A DNA stretch of 64,000 bases from Escherichia coli (GTDB lineage: Bacteria; Pseudomonadota; Gammaproteobacteria; Enterobacterales; Enterobacteriaceae), in NCBI RefSeq assembly GCF_024502345.1, contig NZ_JALDNN010000001.1; one strand, given 5' to 3'. A model generated the notes under the pieces. That model was not told the DNA's origin, ran no database searches, and saw nothing but the letters and a program-made list of their open reading frames with translations. This document shows, piece by piece, positions 1 to 42,478 of this stretch; the stretch's first letter is position 1; every line of letters starts with the position of its first letter. The translations under genes and the position numbers were made by a program.

Positions 1-1
1 T

Positions 2-193
2 CGTCGCAACGCTGGCGTCATCCTGAACACGCTCAACCAGAAGCGTAATGAGGCGGTTGGTAAGTACGTTCAGCAAAACGGTATCAAGCGAGTGGAAGCG
101 CCTCAGGCTTCTATAGATTACCTGAAGCAGCACCCCGAGCTGTCAATCGACTTCATTAATCGCTACGGATATCTTCCATCTTTGGGGCAGTAA
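2..193 (+). CDS. 3' end of a phage structural/ejection-type gene, truncated by the window edge
   Basis: Frame 2 is open from the window edge to a TAA at 191-193; the stop abuts the next gene's ATG (TAAATG), suggesting translational coupling. No family assignment possible from 63 aa. Confidence 0.35.
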   Translation, partial: RRNAGVILNTLNQKRNEAVGKYVQQNGIKRVEAPQASIDYLKQHPELSIDFINRYGYLPSLGQ

Positions 194-649
194 ATGGCTA
201 ATTACCGTGATTTGTTAGAGCAGGCTGGCGCACGTTACGGTGTGCCAGAAGGGTTGATGACTGCACTGGGTGCCAAGGAGTCTTCTTACAACCCTGCCGC
301 AGTAAGCTCCGCCGGGGCTGTAGGATTGACTCAGGTCATGCCTGGGACATGGCGTGATATGGGTTATACCGATGAGCAAATGCAAAACCCCGAATATCAA
401 GCTGACGCTGGCGCGCGCTATCTGGCAAAGATGTACCAGCAGTTTGGTAACTGGCGTGACGCTCTTCAGGCTTATCACGACGGTCCCGGCAACGTTATGA
501 AGGCAAAGCGTGGTGAATATACGCCAGGACCTGAAGGCCGCGGTTACGTTGATGATCGCTTTGCTCAATGGGCGGGTGACCCGGTGACAGACTCAACAGT
601 CGAACAGCGCGCCACCTCTGCAAAGGTACCTTTGCTGATTGTTATCTGA
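194..649 (+). CDS. Phage lytic transglycosylase (SLT-domain) protein, probably virion/ejection-associated
   Basis: 151-aa ORF with the SLT signature (GAKESSYNPAAVSSAGAVGLTQVMP, catalytic Glu-Ser context); sits in the prophage late region upstream of the mnt/tailspike module. Confidence 0.7.
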   Translation: MANYRDLLEQAGARYGVPEGLMTALGAKESSYNPAAVSSAGAVGLTQVMPGTWRDMGYTDEQMQNPEYQADAGARYLAKMYQQFGNWRDALQAYHDGPGNVMKAKRGEYTPGPEGRGYVDDRFAQWAGDPVTDSTVEQRATSAKVPLLIVI

Positions 650-1163
650 TGTTACTGCTACTGTTGCATGTTACCGTGTTTCCAAATCCTGAATTGCAGT
701 TTGTATATGTGTCAACGCGTGTTGGGTAAGGTTGAGTTATAACAGGCTGGCGCGCTTTTTGCTCGATCGCTTGCATTGTGTTTACAGCCTGATAATTCAA
801 TAAAGCCTGCTGGAATGCTTGGCTTTGTGCTATTTGTTGGGCTTGTTCTTGGCTTTGTAATTGAACATAAAGATTCTGAAGCTCAAGTCTTGCCTGTGCG
901 TCACTTATCTTGCCTTCATCGACACCTTGCCCGAGCATCTTTGCAGCAAGGACATACAGCTTAGGTGTTGGTGCTGATGCCATGCGTGAGTCGTTCTTCA
1001 CACTGGCATCAAGGCAATTAGCCATATCGCTAAGCTTTTGATAGCGTTGTTCGCAACTTGCTTGATAGTCACTTACTTTTGCGCATCCAACCAGCAGAAG
1101 CGGGATAATTAACAGTGATTTTTTCATATGGTTAACTCTCCTTAGTTTTTCACAGGATATCAT
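642..1163 (-). CDS. Prophage-encoded lipoprotein, candidate superinfection-exclusion or moron protein
   Basis: 173-aa ORF with an N-terminal signal peptide and lipobox (MKKSLLIIPLLLVG-C), followed by a Gln-rich, coiled-coil-like segment; RBS-like GGAGAG upstream; lies where sieA sits in P22 (next to mnt). Confidence 0.6.
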   Translation of the reverse strand: MISCEKLRRVNHMKKSLLIIPLLLVGCAKVSDYQASCEQRYQKLSDMANCLDASVKNDSRMASAPTPKLYVLAAKMLGQGVDEGKISDAQARLELQNLYVQLQSQEQAQQIAQSQAFQQALLNYQAVNTMQAIEQKARQPVITQPYPTRVDTYTNCNSGFGNTVTCNSSSNIR

Positions 1164-1197
1164 GAAGGCTATGCCATTTTAGCCGGAAACTAGATTT

Positions 1198-1497
1198 CTA
1201 TGTTTCCTTTTTATTATTGCTATACATGGTCTTAAGCGTTTCAAATACCATTTTCTTAACCATATCAGATTGTTGTTCTGCCATACGCTCTGCATCATCA
1301 ATGTAAACGGATGCAGAGCTTTGTTTAGCCAACGATTCTTCAATCGCTGCAATTATCTCTGAGTTCAGAGATCTGTTATTCATCTTCGCACGCTGCTTAA
1401 TTTTCGCGTGGAGTTCATGCGGAAGTCTCAAGTGAAACTGCGCCTCATCGTATTTGCTGTACATCCTTGATGCCTCACCAGTTGGGTGGAATGGCAT
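1198..1497 (-). CDS. mnt: Mnt-like ribbon-helix-helix repressor (Arc/MetJ superfamily)
   Basis: C-terminal segment [26 protein letters not shown] closely parallels P22 Mnt as I recall it, and the N-terminal RHH motif ([28 protein letters not shown]) is present. The true start may be the internal Met (MYSKYDE, ~1464). Divergent from the tailspike gene. Confidence 0.7.
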
Positions 1498-1584
1498 CGT
1501 AACCTACTGGATAAATACTCAATAGTACCATTTCGGTATGCAATCACATCATGGTTGCATCATATCATCGTCTGGAGCAATGAA

Positions 1585-1725
1585 ATGTCAGATATCACCG
1601 CAAATGTTGTGGTAAGCATGCCTTCGCAACTCTTCACTATGGCGCGTTCTTTTAAAGCGGTTGCCAATGGTAAAATTTATATCGGTAAAATTGACACTGA
1701 CCCGGTAAATCCTGAAAACCAGATT
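1585..1725 (+). pseudogene. P22-type tailspike gene, 5' fragment (head-binding domain), cut off by an IS insertion
   Basis: [47 protein letters not shown] matches the P22 gp9 N-terminus almost residue for residue; the frame then runs into IS-end sequence and stops. Confidence 0.8.
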
Positions 1726-1761
1726 GATCTTGACCCTCCATCTCCGAACAGCTTTTGTATC

Positions 1762-2643
1762 TTAAGTTAACGATGTCCGCTGCCGCCGGTATTCCCTCGG
1801 GGAGTGATATCCCAGCGCGCTGTGCGGGTGGTTTTCATTGTAATGCGTGAACGCTACTGCAAGGTTTCGCAGTGCTGTTCTCACATCCGGTTTTGGCATG
1901 AACGCGATATAGTCTTCTTTCATCGTTTTCACGAACCGTTCGGCCATGCCATTACTCTGCGGGCTGCTCACCGCTGTTGTGCAGGGCTCCAGATTCAGCT
2001 CTCTCGCGAACCTCCGCGTTTCATACGCGGTATACGCTGAACCGTTATCCGTCAGCCACTGCACCGCTGTGTCGGGCAACCTGTCGCCGAAGCGCTTTTC
2101 CACCGACCTCAGCATCACATCCTGCACGGTCGAACTGTCATAGCCTCCCGTGCTTGCTGCCCAGTCTATGGCCTCACGGTCGCAGCAGTCCAGCGCGAAC
2201 GTTACCCGCAGTTTTTCGCCGTTGTCGCAGCCGAACTCGAAGCCATCTGAACACCAGCGCATATCGCTTTCTGCCACCGCTATCTTGCCCTTATGTTCAC
2301 GCTTCGGTCGCTCTGGTTTGTGATGCAACAACAACAGGTTATGCTCGCTCATTATCCTGTAAAGCCGTTTGGCATTCACAGGTGGCTGTCCCTCTGTGCG
2401 ACGTTGCTTGCGCAGGATGCCCCACACGCGTCGATAACCATAACTCGGCATATCGCTGATAATGTTGAGGATAGCCGACAGTATTTCTGCGTCTGCTTCT
2501 TCATTACGCCGGTTACAGCGCCTGTCCTGCCAGTCGGCAGAACGGTTAATCCGCAGTGACAGTTGCGCACGCGACACGCCCATGGTCCGGCTGACCATGG
2601 CTATTCCCCGTCCTTTGGCAACAAGGGCGCGTGCGCTATCCAT
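1762..2643 (-). CDS. IS transposase OrfB (DDE integrase-like catalytic domain), IS2 InsD homologue
   Basis: 293 aa; motifs shared with IS2 InsD ([55 protein letters not shown]). Confidence 0.85.
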
Positions 2644-2996
2644 TTTCGCGACTGACCGTACTCCACGGCTTCTTTCAGGATCTCAACTTCCATCGTTTTC
2701 TTGCCCAGAAGGCGCTGAAGCTCCCGGACCTGCTTCAGAGCAGCAGTAAGCTCAGAAGCAGGAACGACTTCCTCTCCAGCCGCAACGGCGGTGAGGCTGC
2801 CTTCCTGATATTGCTTCTTCCACTTAAACAGCAGGCTGGGCTGGATACCATGCAGGCGGGCGACATGGGAGACATTCATACCCGGCTCCATCGTCTGCTG
2901 GATAATGGCGATCTTCTCCTGAGGAGTTTTACGTTTACGGACTTCTTGCCCTAACAGGATCCCGGTCATCTCAAAATTGGCGTTAGTGTTAGACAT
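2601..2996 (-). CDS. IS transposase OrfA (HTH DNA-binding), IS2 InsC homologue
   Basis: 131 aa; [61 protein letters not shown] closely parallels IS2 InsC; overlaps OrfB in the -1 frame. Confidence 0.85.
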
Positions 2997-3060
2997 ATAT
3001 TCAAGCCTATCTCTTATCTGGAGATACAGCTACTGTCCGGTGTTTCAGGGGGCTACATCA

Positions 3061-5026
3061 TCCTGAAAACCAGATTCAGGTTTATGTGGAGAATGAGGAT
3101 GGTTCTCACGTTCCTGTTTCGCAGCCAATCATCATTAACGCCGCTGGTTATCCTGTATATAACGGACAGATTGCCAAGTTCGTAACTGTGCAAGGCCACT
3201 CTATGGCTGTTTATGATGCATATGGTGCGCAGCAGTTTTATTTCCCTAATGTGCTGAAATACGACCCTGATCAGTTAAGGAAGGAAATTACATCCACAGG
3301 GAAAGGAAAAGGTGCGGATATGATCCCCCTTCAGCAGGGTGGAACAGTTCAAAGTGCTATATATTATGTTACGCCATCATCGGCAGGAATAACTGGTGAT
3401 GGGACAGATGAAGGAGAAAAATTAATCTATTTGCTAAATAGATATGATGGGTATGTTATCGACCTGTCTGGAATGACAATTAAAACAAGCGAGATGATTA
3501 GTGTTGTTTTCAACAAAAAAACAACAATAAGAAATGGAACTATTATCTATACTGGAGCAGTAAGTCCATTTGTTTTAAAAATAACGTGCTCATCCGTTCT
3601 TTCCATAGAGGATATTGCCATTGACGGCAAGAACAATGCTGCAAAGCTACTCTATGCGCTTTCATCCGATAACAACGCAAAAATATCTATTTCAGGCTAT
3701 TCTGGAAGAAACGCTAGGGAAGCAATTGACACAGGATTATCAACTGCTGCATATATTACGGCAGGCTCATTGTTTAGATGGAAAGAGATTAGGCTGTCAG
3801 ATTCCTCAGCTTATGATATTTCAAGCTCAGGTGGTTCTAATGTTGGTCGCGGGTTTATGGTTCAAAACTTTGAATATTGCTATGTTAGGAATATTTCAGT
3901 ATTCCGAGTTGGACCATATCAGGATGCGGATGGGATATATGCATCATCCCCTAACTATTTATCAGCAGTATTTGATATTAGTGATTCGTATTTTGAAGAC
4001 TGCCAGAAGAGATCAGTCAAATCACAGATAATGAACTCTCGGGTGAGCAATATTGTAGAGCGGCGCACACAGGCCTTTGCTGTTGCTGCTGGGCAGTCAG
4101 CAGTAGACTTGCAGGCAGGAGGTTCTCTAGACGGACTTAGTTGCTTCTATGCTGACGGAGCAGCCCCACAGTCAATCGTTTCAGGTGGTCTTGTCAGTGG
4201 AGCACCGACATTTCGAGGTATTTCTTTGCGAAATATTGACGTCAACTGCGAAGATCCGTCAGATATTATCTCTCGTCTGGTATCATTTTATAATAACTCG
4301 CCGAATACATATGATGGTTACATTGCTGAAAATATAAAATGTAATGCCATAATAGAGAATGTTGGATTTCTGTATAGCAATACAGGAAACACAAATTTTA
4401 ATGTATATCTCTTCAAAGAGGTTATCTTCAGAAACATTCAGTCGTCAGGAATGGCAGGAACGGTGCCAACTGCTGTAATTCAAATAAGCAGAGGTTCCTC
4501 TGCGTATGTGAAGGCTATAGTACGGGTGCAAAACCTCAATCTTGGCGATGGAAATATCGCACCATTGTATTATCTTGACCCATTGCCAGGGGTTACAACT
4601 TTTCTTGATGTTTTATTTCGTCAAGTAAGTAATTGCAGAGGGTTTGATACGCTAACTAACGTAAATTCCGATACATCTCAACGCATCTATGCAGTAACTG
4701 CAGACGTAGCTGAAAATGAATCTACAACACTTTTAATACCAATAAAGACAACAAATGGAAAAACGGCAGTAAAAATATCTGTAATGTATAACTCAAACAG
4801 GGATGAGCATGCAGCAAAGCTATTCACAGAAGGATACTGGTTCTTCGGGTTATCATTGCCATATTATATAGAATCAGTCGCTGGAGTAAAAACACAAACA
4901 AACGTTGGATCTATCGTGGTCACAGTTGCTGAAAACAATTTAGTTGTAAAAAAAATCGCTGGAACCACCGCTGCAAGCGGGCGGATGACAGTGATTATTG
5001 AGCATATATCATGCGTGAATATGTAG
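3061..5026 (+). pseudogene. P22-type tailspike gene, 3' portion (rest of head-binding domain plus a divergent beta-helix receptor-binding domain)
   Basis: Resumes …(PENQI)[50 protein letters not shown]… matching P22 gp9 residues ~45-110, then diverges; the six-frame ORF (3086..5026) starts at an internal Met. AT-rich relative to the flanks. Confidence 0.75.
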
Positions 5027-5160
5027 GTTAATCTGATAAATTGGGAATGGATTGGTTGCAGAATGGCGCCCTCTGTGAGACATCTGCTGCATTAGGAGTG
5101 ATAACATACATCATCAACGATGCGATGTGAGTTTGATTATTGCACGGTTTATAGGTGGCG

Positions 5161-6318
5161 CTATGCCACCCTCTCATCAATCCAGTCCGCCCACCACTGC
5201 ATCATTTCTCTGCGCTTATCGAGATACTGAGCATGGTTGTAAATCCCACGCACAGATCCGCCGTTGGCATGTGCCAGTTGCACTTCAATAGCGTCAGCAG
5301 GCCATTCGTGCTCGTTCATAATCGTGCTGAATTCATGTCTGAATCCGTGACCGCTATCCAGACCCTCATAGCCGATTTGTTTGATCACAAGTAGCACCGC
5401 GTTCTCGCAGATTGGCTTCTTCTTATCGTTGCGCCCGGCAAAAACAAATTCTGATACTGGTTTGGTGATGGAGCTTAACGTAGTGAGAAGTTCAACCACC
5501 TGGTCTGACATCGGGACCACATGAATTTTGCGTCCTTTCATCACACTGGCGTCGATGGTGATAATCCTGTTTTCAAAATCGACGTTCTTCCATAGCATAG
5601 AACGAAGCTCTTTCGTTCTTAGGGCTGTGTAGCGTAAAACTTTGGTCGCAATGAGCGATACAATACTTCCTGAAAATGTTGCCAGTGCTTTGTTGAATGC
5701 CGGGATCTGGTCTGCAGGAAGAAACGGGAAGTTCTTCTTGCGGTATCCCTTCATGGCGTCAGCAAGGTCAGGTGCCGGGTTATATTTAGCCCTACCAGTA
5801 ACAATAGCGTAACGGAAAACCTCGCCGCATCTTCTGCGGGCTTTGTTGGCTCTCTCCATTGCGCCGCGATCTTCAAATCTGCGGATTACTTCCAGCAGTT
5901 GCATCGGCTCAATATCCTGAATTTCAAGGCCGCCGATGATGGGTAAAATGTCGTCATCAAACATTTTGGCAAGTTCAGTTGCATAGCCTACTGACCAGAC
6001 TTGCTTCTTGTGCTCGTACCACTCCTTGTAAATCGCACTAAATGAATTGTTGTTAGACGAAGCCTTTTTCGCCTTTACCGGATCGATGCCAACCGAGATG
6101 TCTTTCCTCGCAGTCCATGCCTTATCCCTTGCTTCCTGCAAAGTCATAAGCGGATATTTTCCGACGGTCAGGATTTTCTCCTTACCGTCAATCTTGTAGC
6201 GAAGCTGCCATACCTTTTTCCCGGATACAGGAACATAAAGGTACAGGCCATTACCATCGAGAAGGCGGTATGGTTTTTCTTTCGGCTTTGCTGCTTCAAT
6301 CTGCTTAACGGTGAGCAT
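5161..6318 (-). CDS. intS: Prophage integrase, tyrosine recombinase (IntS / CPS-53 type)
   Basis: Near-identical by eye to E. coli IntS as I recall it (MLTVKQIEAAKPKEKPYRLLDGNGLYLYVPVSGKKVWQLRYKIDGKEK…HGFRHEF…); next to the tRNA. An in-frame upstream ATG at 6354 would give 397 aa; the annotated start is probably the MLTVKQ Met. Confidence 0.9.
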   Translation of the reverse strand: MLTVKQIEAAKPKEKPYRLLDGNGLYLYVPVSGKKVWQLRYKIDGKEKILTVGKYPLMTLQEARDKAWTARKDISVGIDPVKAKKASSNNNSFSAIYKEWYEHKKQVWSVGYATELAKMFDDDILPIIGGLEIQDIEPMQLLEVIRRFEDRGAMERANKARRRCGEVFRYAIVTGRAKYNPAPDLADAMKGYRKKNFPFLPADQIPAFNKALATFSGSIVSLIATKVLRYTALRTKELRSMLWKNVDFENRIITIDASVMKGRKIHVVPMSDQVVELLTTLSSITKPVSEFVFAGRNDKKKPICENAVLLVIKQIGYEGLDSGHGFRHEFSTIMNEHEWPADAIEVQLAHANGGSVRGIYNHAQYLDKRREMMQWWADWIDERVA

Positions 6319-6479
6319 GGGTAAAAATCCGGTGGGTAAAATTATTTTATCCACTTTTTACCCGTCATGGAGTGCGGCTGTCAACGATCTGAAGCGAACC
6401 ATGACGAACTGTTAGTTTCCGGGAGGCTTGATATTCTGGGGATTTTACGGACTGGTACGGATGGGAGCGAACTGATAAA

Positions 6480-6554
6480 TGGTGTCCCCTGCAGGAATCG
6501 AACCTGCAATTAGCCCTTAGGAGGGGCTCGTTATATCCATTTAACTAAGAGGAC
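6480..6554 (-). tRNA. argW: tRNA-Arg (anticodon CCU); prophage attachment site
   Basis: Reverse complement reads GTCCTCTTAGTTAAATGGATATAACGAGCCCCTCCTAAGGGCTAATTGCAGGTTCGATTCCTGCAGGGGACACCA, with a CCT anticodon in the loop, T-arm GGTTCGATTCC and 3' CCA. Confidence 0.9.
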
Positions 6555-6629
6555 AATGCGGCATGAGTATACCCGCTAATGGACTGCGGGGTAAGTACGC
6601 TGCCGCTCGATTGCTTAAACCCTCGCCAT

Positions 6630-7562
6630 TTATGCCGGGTTTTTATCATTTTTCTTAATGTTTTCCGCACGTTCTGCTTTTTGGCGTGCTTCTGCTTTGC
6701 GCTTGTTGCTCATGTCGTTACGGATCTGTGCATGACTCATTAACGCGAAGATAAAGGTGCCGCCGCAGATGTTCCCCGCTAAAGTAGGTAGTGCGAAGGG
6801 CCAGATGAAATCGCTCCAGTGCAGCGTACCGTTAAACACCAGATAGAGGATTTCAACAGAACCGACAACGATGTGAGTGGTGTCACCCAGGGCAATAAGC
6901 CAAGTCATCAATATAATCACCACAATCTTTGCCGCACCCGCTGCAGGAAACATCCATACCATAGTGGCGATCAGCCAGCCGGAAATGATCGCGTTGGCAA
7001 ACATCTCGCTGGGGGTGTTCTTCATCACATCCATGCCGATTTTGACAAATGCATCGCGAGTTTCTTCATTGAAGATTGGCATATATTCAAATGCCCACGC
7101 CGCAATACCTGTCCCGAGAATATTACCCAGCAGCACGACGCCCCATAACCGCATAAGTAAGCCAACGTTGCTCATTGTCGGTTTTTGCATGACGGGTAGT
7201 ACCGCAGTTACGGTGTTTTCGGTAAATAATTGCTGGCGGGCCATAATGACGATAATAAAACCAAAGGTATAACCGAGATTCTCCAGCAAGAAGCTGCCCG
7301 GCACACCTTCCAGTTCGACATGAAATATCCCTTTTGCCAGTAATGAAGCGCCCATCGACAGACCCGCCGCAATGGCTGACCACAGTAGTGCCATTGCGTC
7401 GCGTTCCAGCTCTTTTTCACCATCCTGGCGGATATGCTCATGAATTGCCATCGCCCGGGAGGGGAGTCGATCTTCATCTATTTCTATTTTTTTGCCACGC
7501 TCTTTTTCTTCGCTCTCAACTTCAATTTCGTCGCTGTGTTGATCAATTTTGTCGTTGTCCAT
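6630..7562 (-). CDS. yfdC: Formate/nitrite transporter (FNT) family inner-membrane protein
   Basis: 310-aa ORF, multi-pass membrane protein with an acidic N-terminus; conserved position between argW and mlaA. Confidence 0.85.
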   Translation of the reverse strand: MDNDKIDQHSDEIEVESEEKERGKKIEIDEDRLPSRAMAIHEHIRQDGEKELERDAMALLWSAIAAGLSMGASLLAKGIFHVELEGVPGSFLLENLGYTFGFIIVIMARQQLFTENTVTAVLPVMQKPTMSNVGLLMRLWGVVLLGNILGTGIAAWAFEYMPIFNEETRDAFVKIGMDVMKNTPSEMFANAIISGWLIATMVWMFPAAGAAKIVVIILMTWLIALGDTTHIVVGSVEILYLVFNGTLHWSDFIWPFALPTLAGNICGGTFIFALMSHAQIRNDMSNKRKAEARQKAERAENIKKNDKNPA

Positions 7563-7855
7563 GGTCTCTTCTCTTGAATTAGCACGTATAGCTAAAGCGT
7601 AGCGGCTTTTTTGCTCGCAACTGGCGGGAGTTACTCTGAAAATGAAGAAAAGGCCGCGATTGCCTTTTTCTGTTTCTATAGAATCAAGTAGCCTACAGGG
7701 CGGCGATTACCAGGCTATGATCAAATCAGCAAATCAGGGCGTCTGGACATCAGTTGACGTGCTGTTACAATCGCCCACACCTAAACAGGCGGATACGGTA
7801 TCGTTCCGTCATGGATGGCAAACTGCATAAGCCATAAAAAAACAGGGAGACATTT

Positions 7856-8611
7856 ATGAAGCTTCGCCTGTCGGCGCTTGCTCTGGGAACTACGCTTCTG
7901 GTGGGGTGTGCGAGTTCCGGTACAGATCAGCAAGGGCGTTCTGACCCGTTAGAAGGGTTCAACCGCACCATGTACAACTTCAACTTCAACGTACTAGACC
8001 CGTATATTGTTCGACCGGTCGCTGTCGCCTGGCGTGATTATGTTCCGCAACCGGCGCGTAACGGTTTGAGCAACTTTACCGGCAACCTTGAAGAACCCGC
8101 GGTGATGGTGAACTACTTCTTGCAGGGCGACCCTTATCAGGGGATGGTCCACTTTACCCGCTTTTTCCTGAACACCATTTTGGGGATGGGTGGTTTTATT
8201 GATGTTGCAGGGATGGCGAACCCGAAACTGCAACGGACTGAACCTCACCGCTTCGGTAGTACGCTTGGTCATTATGGCGTGGGTTATGGGCCTTACGTCC
8301 AGTTACCGTTCTACGGTAGCTTCACGCTGCGTGATGACGGTGGTGATATGGCGGATGGTCTTTACCCGGTTCTTTCCTGGCTGACCTGGCCGATGTCTGT
8401 GGGTAAATGGACGCTTGAAGGGATAGAAACTCGTGCGCAGTTGTTGGATTCCGACGGTCTGCTGCGTCAGTCGTCCGATCCTTATATTATGGTGCGCGAA
8501 GCGTACTTCCAGCGTCATGATTTCATCGCTAATGGCGGCGAACTCAAACCGCAGGAAAATCCGAACGCGCAAGCGATTCAGGATGATTTAAAAGATATCG
8601 ATTCTGAATAA
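7856..8611 (+). CDS. mlaA: Outer-membrane lipoprotein MlaA (VacJ), phospholipid asymmetry maintenance
   Basis: 251 aa; signal peptide with lipobox (LLVG-C); RBS AGGGAGA upstream. Confidence 0.9.
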   Translation: MKLRLSALALGTTLLVGCASSGTDQQGRSDPLEGFNRTMYNFNFNVLDPYIVRPVAVAWRDYVPQPARNGLSNFTGNLEEPAVMVNYFLQGDPYQGMVHFTRFFLNTILGMGGFIDVAGMANPKLQRTEPHRFGSTLGHYGVGYGPYVQLPFYGSFTLRDDGGDMADGLYPVLSWLTWPMSVGKWTLEGIETRAQLLDSDGLLRQSSDPYIMVREAYFQRHDFIANGGELKPQENPNAQAIQDDLKDIDSE

Positions 8612-8626
8612 GAAACAAATAAAAAA

Positions 8627-8655
8627 GGTGAGTCGCAATACTCACCTTTTTTGTT
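8627..8655. terminator. Rho-independent terminator between convergent mlaA and the yfdF-like gene
   Basis: Hairpin GGTGAGT-cgcaata-CTCACC flanked by an A-tract upstream and a T-tract downstream. Confidence 0.5.
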
Positions 8656-8822
8656 GTTATCCCTCAATTACCACAAGTAAAAGGAGATAAACCGACAATG
8701 ACCCGGACGTAATTATGTAAAAATACTGATGTTCGTCACTGACTATTTCCGATATTCAGCTGTTGAAAAATCAAAAAACTGGAAAAATAATTTTAAATAT
8801 CATCAAAATTAACACCTAGCGC

Positions 8823-42114: not shown

Positions 42115-42478
<364 letters not shown>

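Follow-up and report, generated by a model that had tools for sequence, protein, structure and literature searches.

A P22/Sf6-like prophage at argW in Escherichia coli whose tailspike gene is split by an IS2-group insertion sequence with a 15-bp target duplication

In the usual picture of prophage decay, a late structural gene of the integrated phage is inactivated by a mobile element, and a gene next to it suffers a deletion. The locus that we describe here, a tailspike gene split by an insertion sequence (IS), is an ordinary case of this kind with one unusual detail, a target duplication of 15 bp. It resembles the IS-disrupted genes of cryptic and defective enterobacterial prophages, and differs from them in nothing essential. 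The nearest described counterparts of the gene itself are the tailspikes of P22 (gp9), Sf6 (gp14) and HK620, with which it shares a head-binding N-terminus over residues 1-118 and a position as the last late gene beside int/att. The Sf6 prophage is, like ours, located at argW. Unlike these three tailspikes, the gene is interrupted here, and the sequence of its receptor-binding part is dissimilar to theirs. As for the mobile element, a 5-bp target-site duplication is given for the IS2 subgroup, and the duplications of IS481EU elements fall into discrete classes of ~4, ~15 and ~25 bp (PMC10045372).

The analysed window is a stretch of 64,000 nucleotides, inside which ~6.4 kb of the prophage lies. 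The tailspike gene is cleanly split, in codons 43-47, by an intact IS2-group IS. Its 5′ fragment (1585..1724, plus strand) covers codons 1-47, all within the head-binding domain; the final base of codon 47 is position 1725, which is common to the IS end. Read from the ATG at 1585, the frame consists of 47 native codons followed by 14 from the IS; the stop is at 1768-1770 and the product 61 aa long. The 3′ fragment (3062..5026, plus strand) repeats codons 43-47 and continues with codons 48-696 and the stop codon at 5024-5026; it supplies what is left of the head-binding domain, together with a receptor-binding domain predicted to be a parallel beta-helix. A first-pass annotation had required, for its reading to hold, that removal of the IS and of a single copy of the repeat leave one continuous tailspike ORF. 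This is borne out, as 1585-1725 joined to 3077-5026 yields 2,091 nt, that is 696 codons, with zero internal stops. The frame also resumes after the IS as was claimed, although not at 3061: the repeated codons start at 3062 and new sequence at 3077, a trivial slip.

The N-terminal fragment is gp9-like, as had been recognized. The Pfam Head_binding model (PF09008) matches residues 1-113 of the joined protein over all 113 model positions (E = 5e-67), and the N-terminus matches PDB entries for Sf6 gp14 (7sg7, E = 6e-65) and P22 gp9 (2vky, 8tvr and 2xc1; 1e-50). The first 118 residues of the joined ORF align without gaps to both proteins across the junction. Tailspikes of the gp9 family act as trimers on the tail hub, where they bind or cleave a surface polysaccharide. 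For the C-terminal part a right-handed parallel beta-helix receptor-binding/depolymerase domain is predicted. In an AlphaFold2 model residues ~150-550 are all-beta, with pLDDT mostly 80-98, and a Foldseek search with this model returns the tailspikes of Sf6, P22, HK620 and Phi92 and capsule-depolymerase tailspikes at a probability of 1.0, with low TM-scores of 0.2-0.4. Sequence similarity between the receptor-binding domain and solved tailspikes was not detectable, and searches of 50,697 GenBank phage records with blastn and tblastn gave zero matches to it. This type of receptor-binding domain is also rare among complete E. coli genomes, as it was found in one of 5,426.

The interrupting IS (1725..3060, minus strand) is 1,336 bp long, and the earlier description of a ~1.33 kb IS2-group element was correct. 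Its ends read 5′-TG...CA-3′ (TGATCTTGACCC... and ...GGGGGCTACATCA) and are unchanged across copies with unrelated flanks. They lie within imperfect terminal inverted repeats of ~28 bp, IRR at ~1725-1752 and IRL at ~3033-3060. Two genes are encoded on the minus strand: orfA (2996-2601) for a 131-aa HTH protein with IS2 TnpA as its best NCBIfam match, and orfB (2643-1762) for a 293-aa protein with an rve integrase-core (DDE) domain and IS2 TnpB as its best match. The two share 43 nt, orfB being read in the -1 frame with respect to orfA, and in identical IS copies RefSeq annotates a single programmed-frameshift transposase (WP_089617520.1). The transposase thus appears to have the IS3-family organization of two overlapping ORFs joined by a -1 programmed frameshift. 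OrfB passes the IS3-family equivalog NF033516 (199 bits, cut-off 160) and is matched by the Pfam models rve, rve_3 and HTH_21, as well as weakly by an IS481 model. The scores against the IS2 subfamily models are both below their cut-offs (TnpB 416.5 bits against 597, TnpA 201.2 against 229), and the element is a relative of IS2 rather than IS2 proper. With IS2 and ISEc48 it shares the overlapping ORFs with orfB in -1, the rve (DDE) domain, the TG...CA ends and the imperfect inverted repeats. The nucleotide identity to elements annotated as ISEc48-like is ~78%, and 100% identical copies are found on chromosomes as well as plasmids of other E. coli. A scan of GTDB representative genomes with the IS end gave just two remnants of that end, each of 114 bp, in Klebsiella grimontii and Kluyvera ascorbata; duplications cannot be measured from them.

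An exact direct repeat of 17 nt surrounds the element (1709-1725 is the same as 3060-3076). One base on each side is common to the IS ends, and the other 15 of the 17 (TCCTGAAAACCAGAT) are an unambiguous target-site duplication, with a left copy at 1710..1724 and a right copy at 3061..3075, both abutting the IS. By chance, an exact repeat of 17 nt would occur within 1.8 kb with a probability of roughly 1e-4, and here the repeat lies precisely at the two ends of the IS. We also considered whether the 15-mer could be part of the IS itself; this was ruled out, as the repeat sequence differs at every insertion site. Because the duplication is perfect, the insertion is suggested to be evolutionarily recent.

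The 15 bp found at the tailspike copy, and the 15-16 bp found at most copies, differ from the 5 bp that is described for the IS2 subgroup (PMC10045372). The assignment of the element to the IS2 group still holds, since it is based on the proteins. Among the distinct insertions of the IS lineage the duplication is 15-16 bp at 20, including the tailspike copy, and 5 bp at three; a 25-bp class was not seen among the measured insertions. For the insertions L012 and L019, the possibility that 5-bp duplications are chance matches was ruled out, as removal of the IS and 5 bp leaves a fully open frame across the junction. A tentative interpretation, which may well prove wrong, is that the lineage (the tailspike copy, relatives at 91% identity or above, and ISEc48-like elements at ~78%) has two discrete staggers, one of 5 bp and a far more frequent one that is longer by one helical turn, at 15-16 bp. 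In IS481EU/Banshee and some IS481-family elements the duplication lengths are likewise discrete and spaced by about one helical turn, as are the 5 and 15-16 bp of our lineage. The DDE transposases of IS481EU/Banshee are related to that of our element; however, these elements belong to a different family, have a single-ORF transposase and reside in eukaryotic or archaeal hosts. A literature search on 15-16 bp duplications in IS3-family and IS2-group elements, and on ISEc48, which did not cover ISfinder, returned nothing relevant beyond the IS481EU paper (PMC10045372).

The multicopy nature of the IS also bears on the assembly. Repeats are a classic source of misassembly, and a repeat that is present on chromosomes and plasmids could have been misplaced into a tailspike gene that is intact in the real genome. 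We regard this as extremely improbable. A misassembly would not make a perfect 15-bp duplication exactly at both ends of the IS, the duplication fits the 15-16 bp signature of 19 other independent insertions of the lineage, and the 64-kb window contains a single copy of the element.

Uninterrupted alleles, whose existence in other E. coli had been proposed as a check, do exist. E. coli HCP6S3_I2 has one, with 98.8% nucleotide identity, at the same argW/intS/yfdC locus, and another is carried by a metagenomic P22-like phage contig (690/696 aa). When our gene is compared with the HCP6S3_I2 allele the 5′ fragment is only ~89% identical and the 3′ part 98.5%, as might be expected if the fragments came from different genes that had been joined by recombination between two IS copies. 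This is scarcely credible in view of the identical 15-bp copies on both sides, which indicate a single simple insertion; recombination between two IS copies would leave unlike flanks. In addition, joining the fragments leaves an unbroken ORF that continues to match Sf6 and P22 through the junction. Mosaic breaks of identity inside the conserved head-binding domain are ordinary for P22-like tailspikes, with 1,110 genomes that match only the first ~350 nt of the gene. The interrupted locus is absent from the 5,426 complete E. coli genomes, and the insertion is likewise absent from the sampled IS copies on metagenomic and viral contigs.

Could the separated 3′ fragment still be expressed? Its first possible start codon is a GTG at 3086 (646 aa), with none upstream. 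As there is no earlier start, the product would at best lack residues 1-50 of the 113-residue head-binding domain. P22 tailspikes with a shortened N-terminus are known to fold and to retain their activity, for example the deltaN constructs behind the crystal structures. By analogy, translation from GTG 3086 or read-through from the IS could yield a free polysaccharide depolymerase that is deficient in head binding and enzymatically active, in which case the tailspike would be converted rather than destroyed. The 646-codon frame is indeed fully open, 99% identical to intact alleles and free of decay. A recent insertion, however, explains the lack of decay equally well. The adjoining IS end is IRL, whose promoter faces the interior of the IS, the direction opposite to the fragment, there is no promoter-like site between the IS and 3086, and no start codon has an obvious ribosome-binding site. 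In a promoter and terminator scan that covered 1100-5300, sites stayed at chance level and promoter-like sites showed no excess over shuffled sequence, which gives no support to an outward IS promoter or to expression of the fragment. We therefore consider such a conversion very unlikely, and loss of the tailspike remains our preferred reading.

The surrounding gene order in the window is ejection protein, SLT protein, lipoprotein, Arc/Mnt, tailspike, intS and argW, and relatives show the same order. The tailspike gene is positioned as in the gp9 family: it is the last of the late genes, behind those for the ejection proteins and the immI region, and adjoins int/att. Directly upstream is a gene for an Arc/Mnt-family repressor in an immI-like region (1198..1497, minus strand). 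Downstream is the gene for the prophage integrase IntS (5161..6354, minus strand; these coordinates take the ORF from its earliest start codon, and a start at 6318 would correspond to the 385-aa form that is annotated in relatives). It is followed by the integration site, argW, the gene for tRNA-Arg(CCU) (6480..6554, minus strand), with the host genes yfdC and mlaA next. Strain O125ac C 236-04A is 100% identical over a core segment, but the prophage at its argW is a different one, of myovirus-like type.

A second lesion lies in the gene for an SLT-domain (lytic-transglycosylase) DNA-ejection protein, in the position of P22 gene 16 (194..649, plus strand). This gene is truncated to 151 codons, compared with 665-797 in relatives. 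Window positions 1-629 are 99.8% identical to the 5′ end of the 797-aa SLT ejection-protein gene of strain STEC711, and positions 615-1725 are 99% identical to strain Z142-1, beginning 61 nt past the stop of its 665-aa SLT gene. The deletion, of ~1.5-2 kb, thus has its junction at 615-629, at a short microhomology, and this junction was found in no complete E. coli genome. It had been suggested that the prophage should not produce adsorption-competent virions unless the IS excises precisely. With respect to adsorption this stands, and it is reasonable to expect from the sequence that loss of the tailspike leaves no adsorption-competent virions. With respect to infectivity the suggestion was overstated: because the SLT ejection-protein gene is also truncated, precise excision of the IS alone would probably not restore infectious phage.

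Taken together, we hold with high confidence that an apparently active IS2-group IS moved into tailspike codons 43-47 of a P22/Sf6-like argW prophage that is now defective, with at least two lesions. The intact element would have transposed by the copy-out/paste-in route, as expected from what is known of the IS3 family, and its insertion carries the 15-bp staggered-cut duplication that is typical of its lineage. The gene is split into a 61-codon stub and a 3′ piece that lacks a promoter and a start. With no functional trimeric tailspike on the tail hub, any particles that are made would not adsorb. In the same prophage most of the SLT ejection-protein gene has been lost by deletion at a microhomology, and the IS would then be one of at least two inactivating lesions in a decaying prophage.

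The length of the duplication is a modestly interesting side observation. If the two staggers are real, the lineage would parallel, within the IS3 family and its copy-out/paste-in mechanism, the discrete duplication lengths reported for IS481EU, and would imply two alternative target-DNA geometries in one transpososome. In that case a long duplication might also raise the frequency of precise excision by slippage, and so make insertional knock-outs more reversible than usual. The 15-16 bp duplications of this lineage in Enterobacteriaceae matter for any IS annotation software that assumes 3-5 bp in the IS3 family, and may also be of consequence for the way in which a copy-out/paste-in transpososome engages its target DNA.

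For the phage, the locus provides a rare receptor-binding type without a representative among isolated phages, and intact alleles exist for work on its specificity. When inducible or transducing phages are predicted for this genome, the prophage should be counted as defective. The locus illustrates a further route of prophage domestication or decay, in which an IS disrupts the gene for the receptor-binding protein and a deletion truncates an ejection-protein gene.

The tailspike gene is carried on the plus strand in two parts. The 5′ part opens with an ATG at 1585 and, from the ORF list and direct reading, continues for 47 native codons and a further 14 unrelated codons to a stop at 1768-1770. 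In the 3′ part the frame picks up after a direct repeat and runs to a stop at 5024-5026 (ORF list). The repeat is an exact 17-nt match, ATCCTGAAAACCAGATT, at 1709-1725 and 3060-3076, and between its copies lies a 1,336-bp insertion sequence (IS) at 1725-3060. Joining 1585-1725 to 3077-5026 gives 2,091 nt, or 696 codons, with no internal stops, and the gene has a G+C content of 40% versus 54% for the inserted segment. The first-pass annotation had described a P22-type tailspike interrupted by an IS of about 1.33 kb, whose fragments should align as a single gene once the IS and one repeat copy are removed; the measured length and the stop-free reconstruction agree with this. Its match to P22 gp9 also holds. 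The Pfam Head_binding domain (PF09008) covers residues 1-113 (E = 5e-67), a PDB sequence search finds Sf6 gp14 (7sg7, E = 6e-65) as well as P22 gp9 (2vky, 8tvr, 2xc1, 1lkt), and these alignments are ungapped at the insertion point. The target, at 3062-3080, is a small inverted repeat, CCTGAA-AACCAGA-TTCAGG, inside the conserved coding sequence for head binding. Other genomes showed no recurrent insertion there, hence no evidence of a hotspot.

The ORF list places the transposase of the IS on the minus strand, with orfA at 2996-2601 (131 aa) and orfB at 2643-1762 (293 aa), the latter overlapping orfA in the -1 frame. The ends of the IS read TGATCTTGACCC... and ...GGGGGCTACATCA and bear imperfect inverted repeats of ~28 bp. 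OrfB exceeds the NCBIfam IS3-family equivalog cut-off (199 bits vs 160) and contains the Pfam domains rve, rve_3 and HTH_21. Its top NCBIfam match is IS2 TnpB, at 416 bits against a subfamily cut-off of 597, while OrfA best matches IS2 TnpA (201 bits vs a 229 cut-off), so the earlier label of 'IS2-group' was right. The window holds one copy. Copies with 100% identity occur on several E. coli chromosomes and plasmids, their transposase annotated there as an IS3-family protein with a programmed frameshift, and the IS is ~78% identical to elements labelled ISEc48-like in RefSeq. Together, these scores and matches indicate an intact IS2-group element that is not IS2 itself.

The IS is flanked by 15-bp duplication copies at 1710-1724 and 3061-3075. 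As duplications of the IS2 subgroup have been described as 5 bp (PMC10045372), we examined what flanks the IS elsewhere, with each distinct insertion counted once, at loci carrying copies, relatives or remnants of the IS (L002-L014, L018-L023 and L026-L096). Across the lineage, 20 insertions have duplications of 15-16 bp, 3 have 5 bp and 7 have none. The 15-16 bp class is made up of the window copy, 8 of the 100%-identical copies in complete E. coli genomes (5 bp in 1, none in 1), 1 of the 93-98% variants in E. coli (5 bp in 2, none in 1) and 10 full-length copies on metagenomic and viral contigs (5 bp in 0, none in 5). A 15-bp duplication also flanks two ISEc48-like relatives of ~78% identity, in one case with a single mismatch. 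For two of the 5-bp insertions, removing the IS and 5 bp leaves a fully open frame over the junction. The possibility that the 15-bp repeat is part of the IS is ruled out, since its sequence is different at every insertion site; the repeats are therefore target duplications. Given these counts, a 15-bp duplication is the normal signature of this lineage, and at the tailspike it is strong evidence of a genuine, simple transposition event. The lineage has two discrete duplication classes, 5 bp and 15-16 bp, which differ by one helical turn. These parallel the classes reported for IS481EU; for IS3-family elements we found no description of such a pattern in the literature searched, ISfinder aside.

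Four IMG/VR contigs classed as viral (L089, L090, L095 and L096) each carry the same IS at full length with a 15-bp duplication; the lineage therefore lands in prophage DNA repeatedly. The species representatives of Klebsiella grimontii (L008) and Kluyvera ascorbata (L009) hold just 114-bp remnants of the IRR end, 96-98% identical, with the rest of the IS absent.

The two modules of the tailspike have different distributions. The head-binding module (the first ~350 nt) is common to 1,110 of 5,426 complete E. coli genomes, and the receptor-binding domain (3410-5023, residues ~160-696) is found in one. That genome, strain HCP6S3_I2, supplies the unbroken allele sought in other E. coli: the whole gene, uninterrupted and 98.8% identical, in the same locus order (late genes, Arc-family genes, tailspike, intS, tRNA-Arg, yfdC, mlaA). 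Used as a protein query, the C-terminal 581 residues also yielded P0001, a protein of 696 aa from a metagenomic P22-like phage contig of 17.8 kb, identical to the reconstruction at 690/696 positions, and 18 other homologues, 30-63% identical, with different N-terminal adaptor domains (PF18668, PF03906, PF12708, PF12218). Homologues at 42-63% identity to the receptor-binding domain come from metagenomic contigs and Enterobacter hormaechei, joined to other adaptors. Such variety of adaptors is ordinary modular shuffling. Neither blastn nor tblastn finds a match to the receptor-binding domain among 50,697 GenBank phage records, and residues ~120-696 match no sequence in PDB, NCBIfam or Pfam. In PHROGs, the first ~370 residues match phrog_8280, annotated as a colanic-acid-degrading tailspike. 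An AlphaFold2 model from 20 homologues (mean pLDDT 78; 80-98 in the central repeats) predicts an all-beta solenoid, for which Foldseek against PDB returns the Sf6, P22, HK620, Phi92 colanidase and capsule-depolymerase tailspikes with probability 1.0 and low TM-scores. We conclude that the protein is a standard P22-type tailspike of two modules, with a putative receptor-binding domain.

The 5′ stub would encode 47 native and 14 IS-encoded residues. An ORF and start-codon scan found no start codon for the 3′ fragment upstream of GTG 3086, and promoter-like sites around the split gene are at chance level only. The adjoining IS end is IRL, whose promoter faces the IS interior. At best, a 3′ product would lack the first 50 of the 113 head-binding residues. 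P22 heads without tailspikes fail to adsorb, which makes sound the first-pass inference that the split gene would yield no adsorption-competent virions.

A further lesion lies upstream. The ORF at 194-649 (151 aa) matches just positions 1-145 of a 576-position SLT-domain 'lytic tail' PHROG; the gene has 151 codons here versus 665-797 in relatives. An SLT ejection-protein gene of 797 aa in E. coli STEC711 has a 5′ end with 99.8% identity to window 1-629, and window 615-1725 is 99% identical to E. coli Z142-1, beginning 61 nt 3′ of the stop of a 665-aa SLT gene. Because these matches meet at 615-629, where there is imperfect microhomology, CCTCTGCA(A/T)AGG...TAC, ~1.5-2 kb has been lost from the gene that occupies the position of P22 gene 16. 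The same junction occurs in no complete E. coli genome, and no record covers >=80% of 1-1724. The deletion is a second inactivating lesion of the same prophage. As gene 16 is needed for P22 infectivity, precise excision of the IS alone would probably not restore a viable phage.

The prophage ends with intS (5161-6354, minus strand), followed by tRNA-Arg(CCU) argW (6480-6554), the Sf6/CPS-53 integration site, with yfdC and then mlaA beyond; the remainder of the prophage extends past the upstream edge of the window. The host is E. coli: one core segment agrees at 100% identity with an O125ac:H10 strain, which has another prophage at argW. For the intS-yfdC-mlaA-fadL flank (5027-12000), identity to complete E. 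coli genomes peaks at ~97-98%, whereas 30000-34000 matches one strain at 100%; this contrast suggests local recombination or mosaicism beside argW. At 42168-42420, on the plus strand, are three tandem matches to Rfam naRNA4 (RF02564, REP-type), ~91 nt apart; tandem REP-type repeats are typical of E. coli intergenic repeat architecture.

In summary, the split tailspike is ordinary prophage decay by IS insertion, with an adjoining deletion. Two minor features stand out from this picture: the receptor-binding domain is rare, and this IS2-group lineage habitually makes 15-16 bp duplications.
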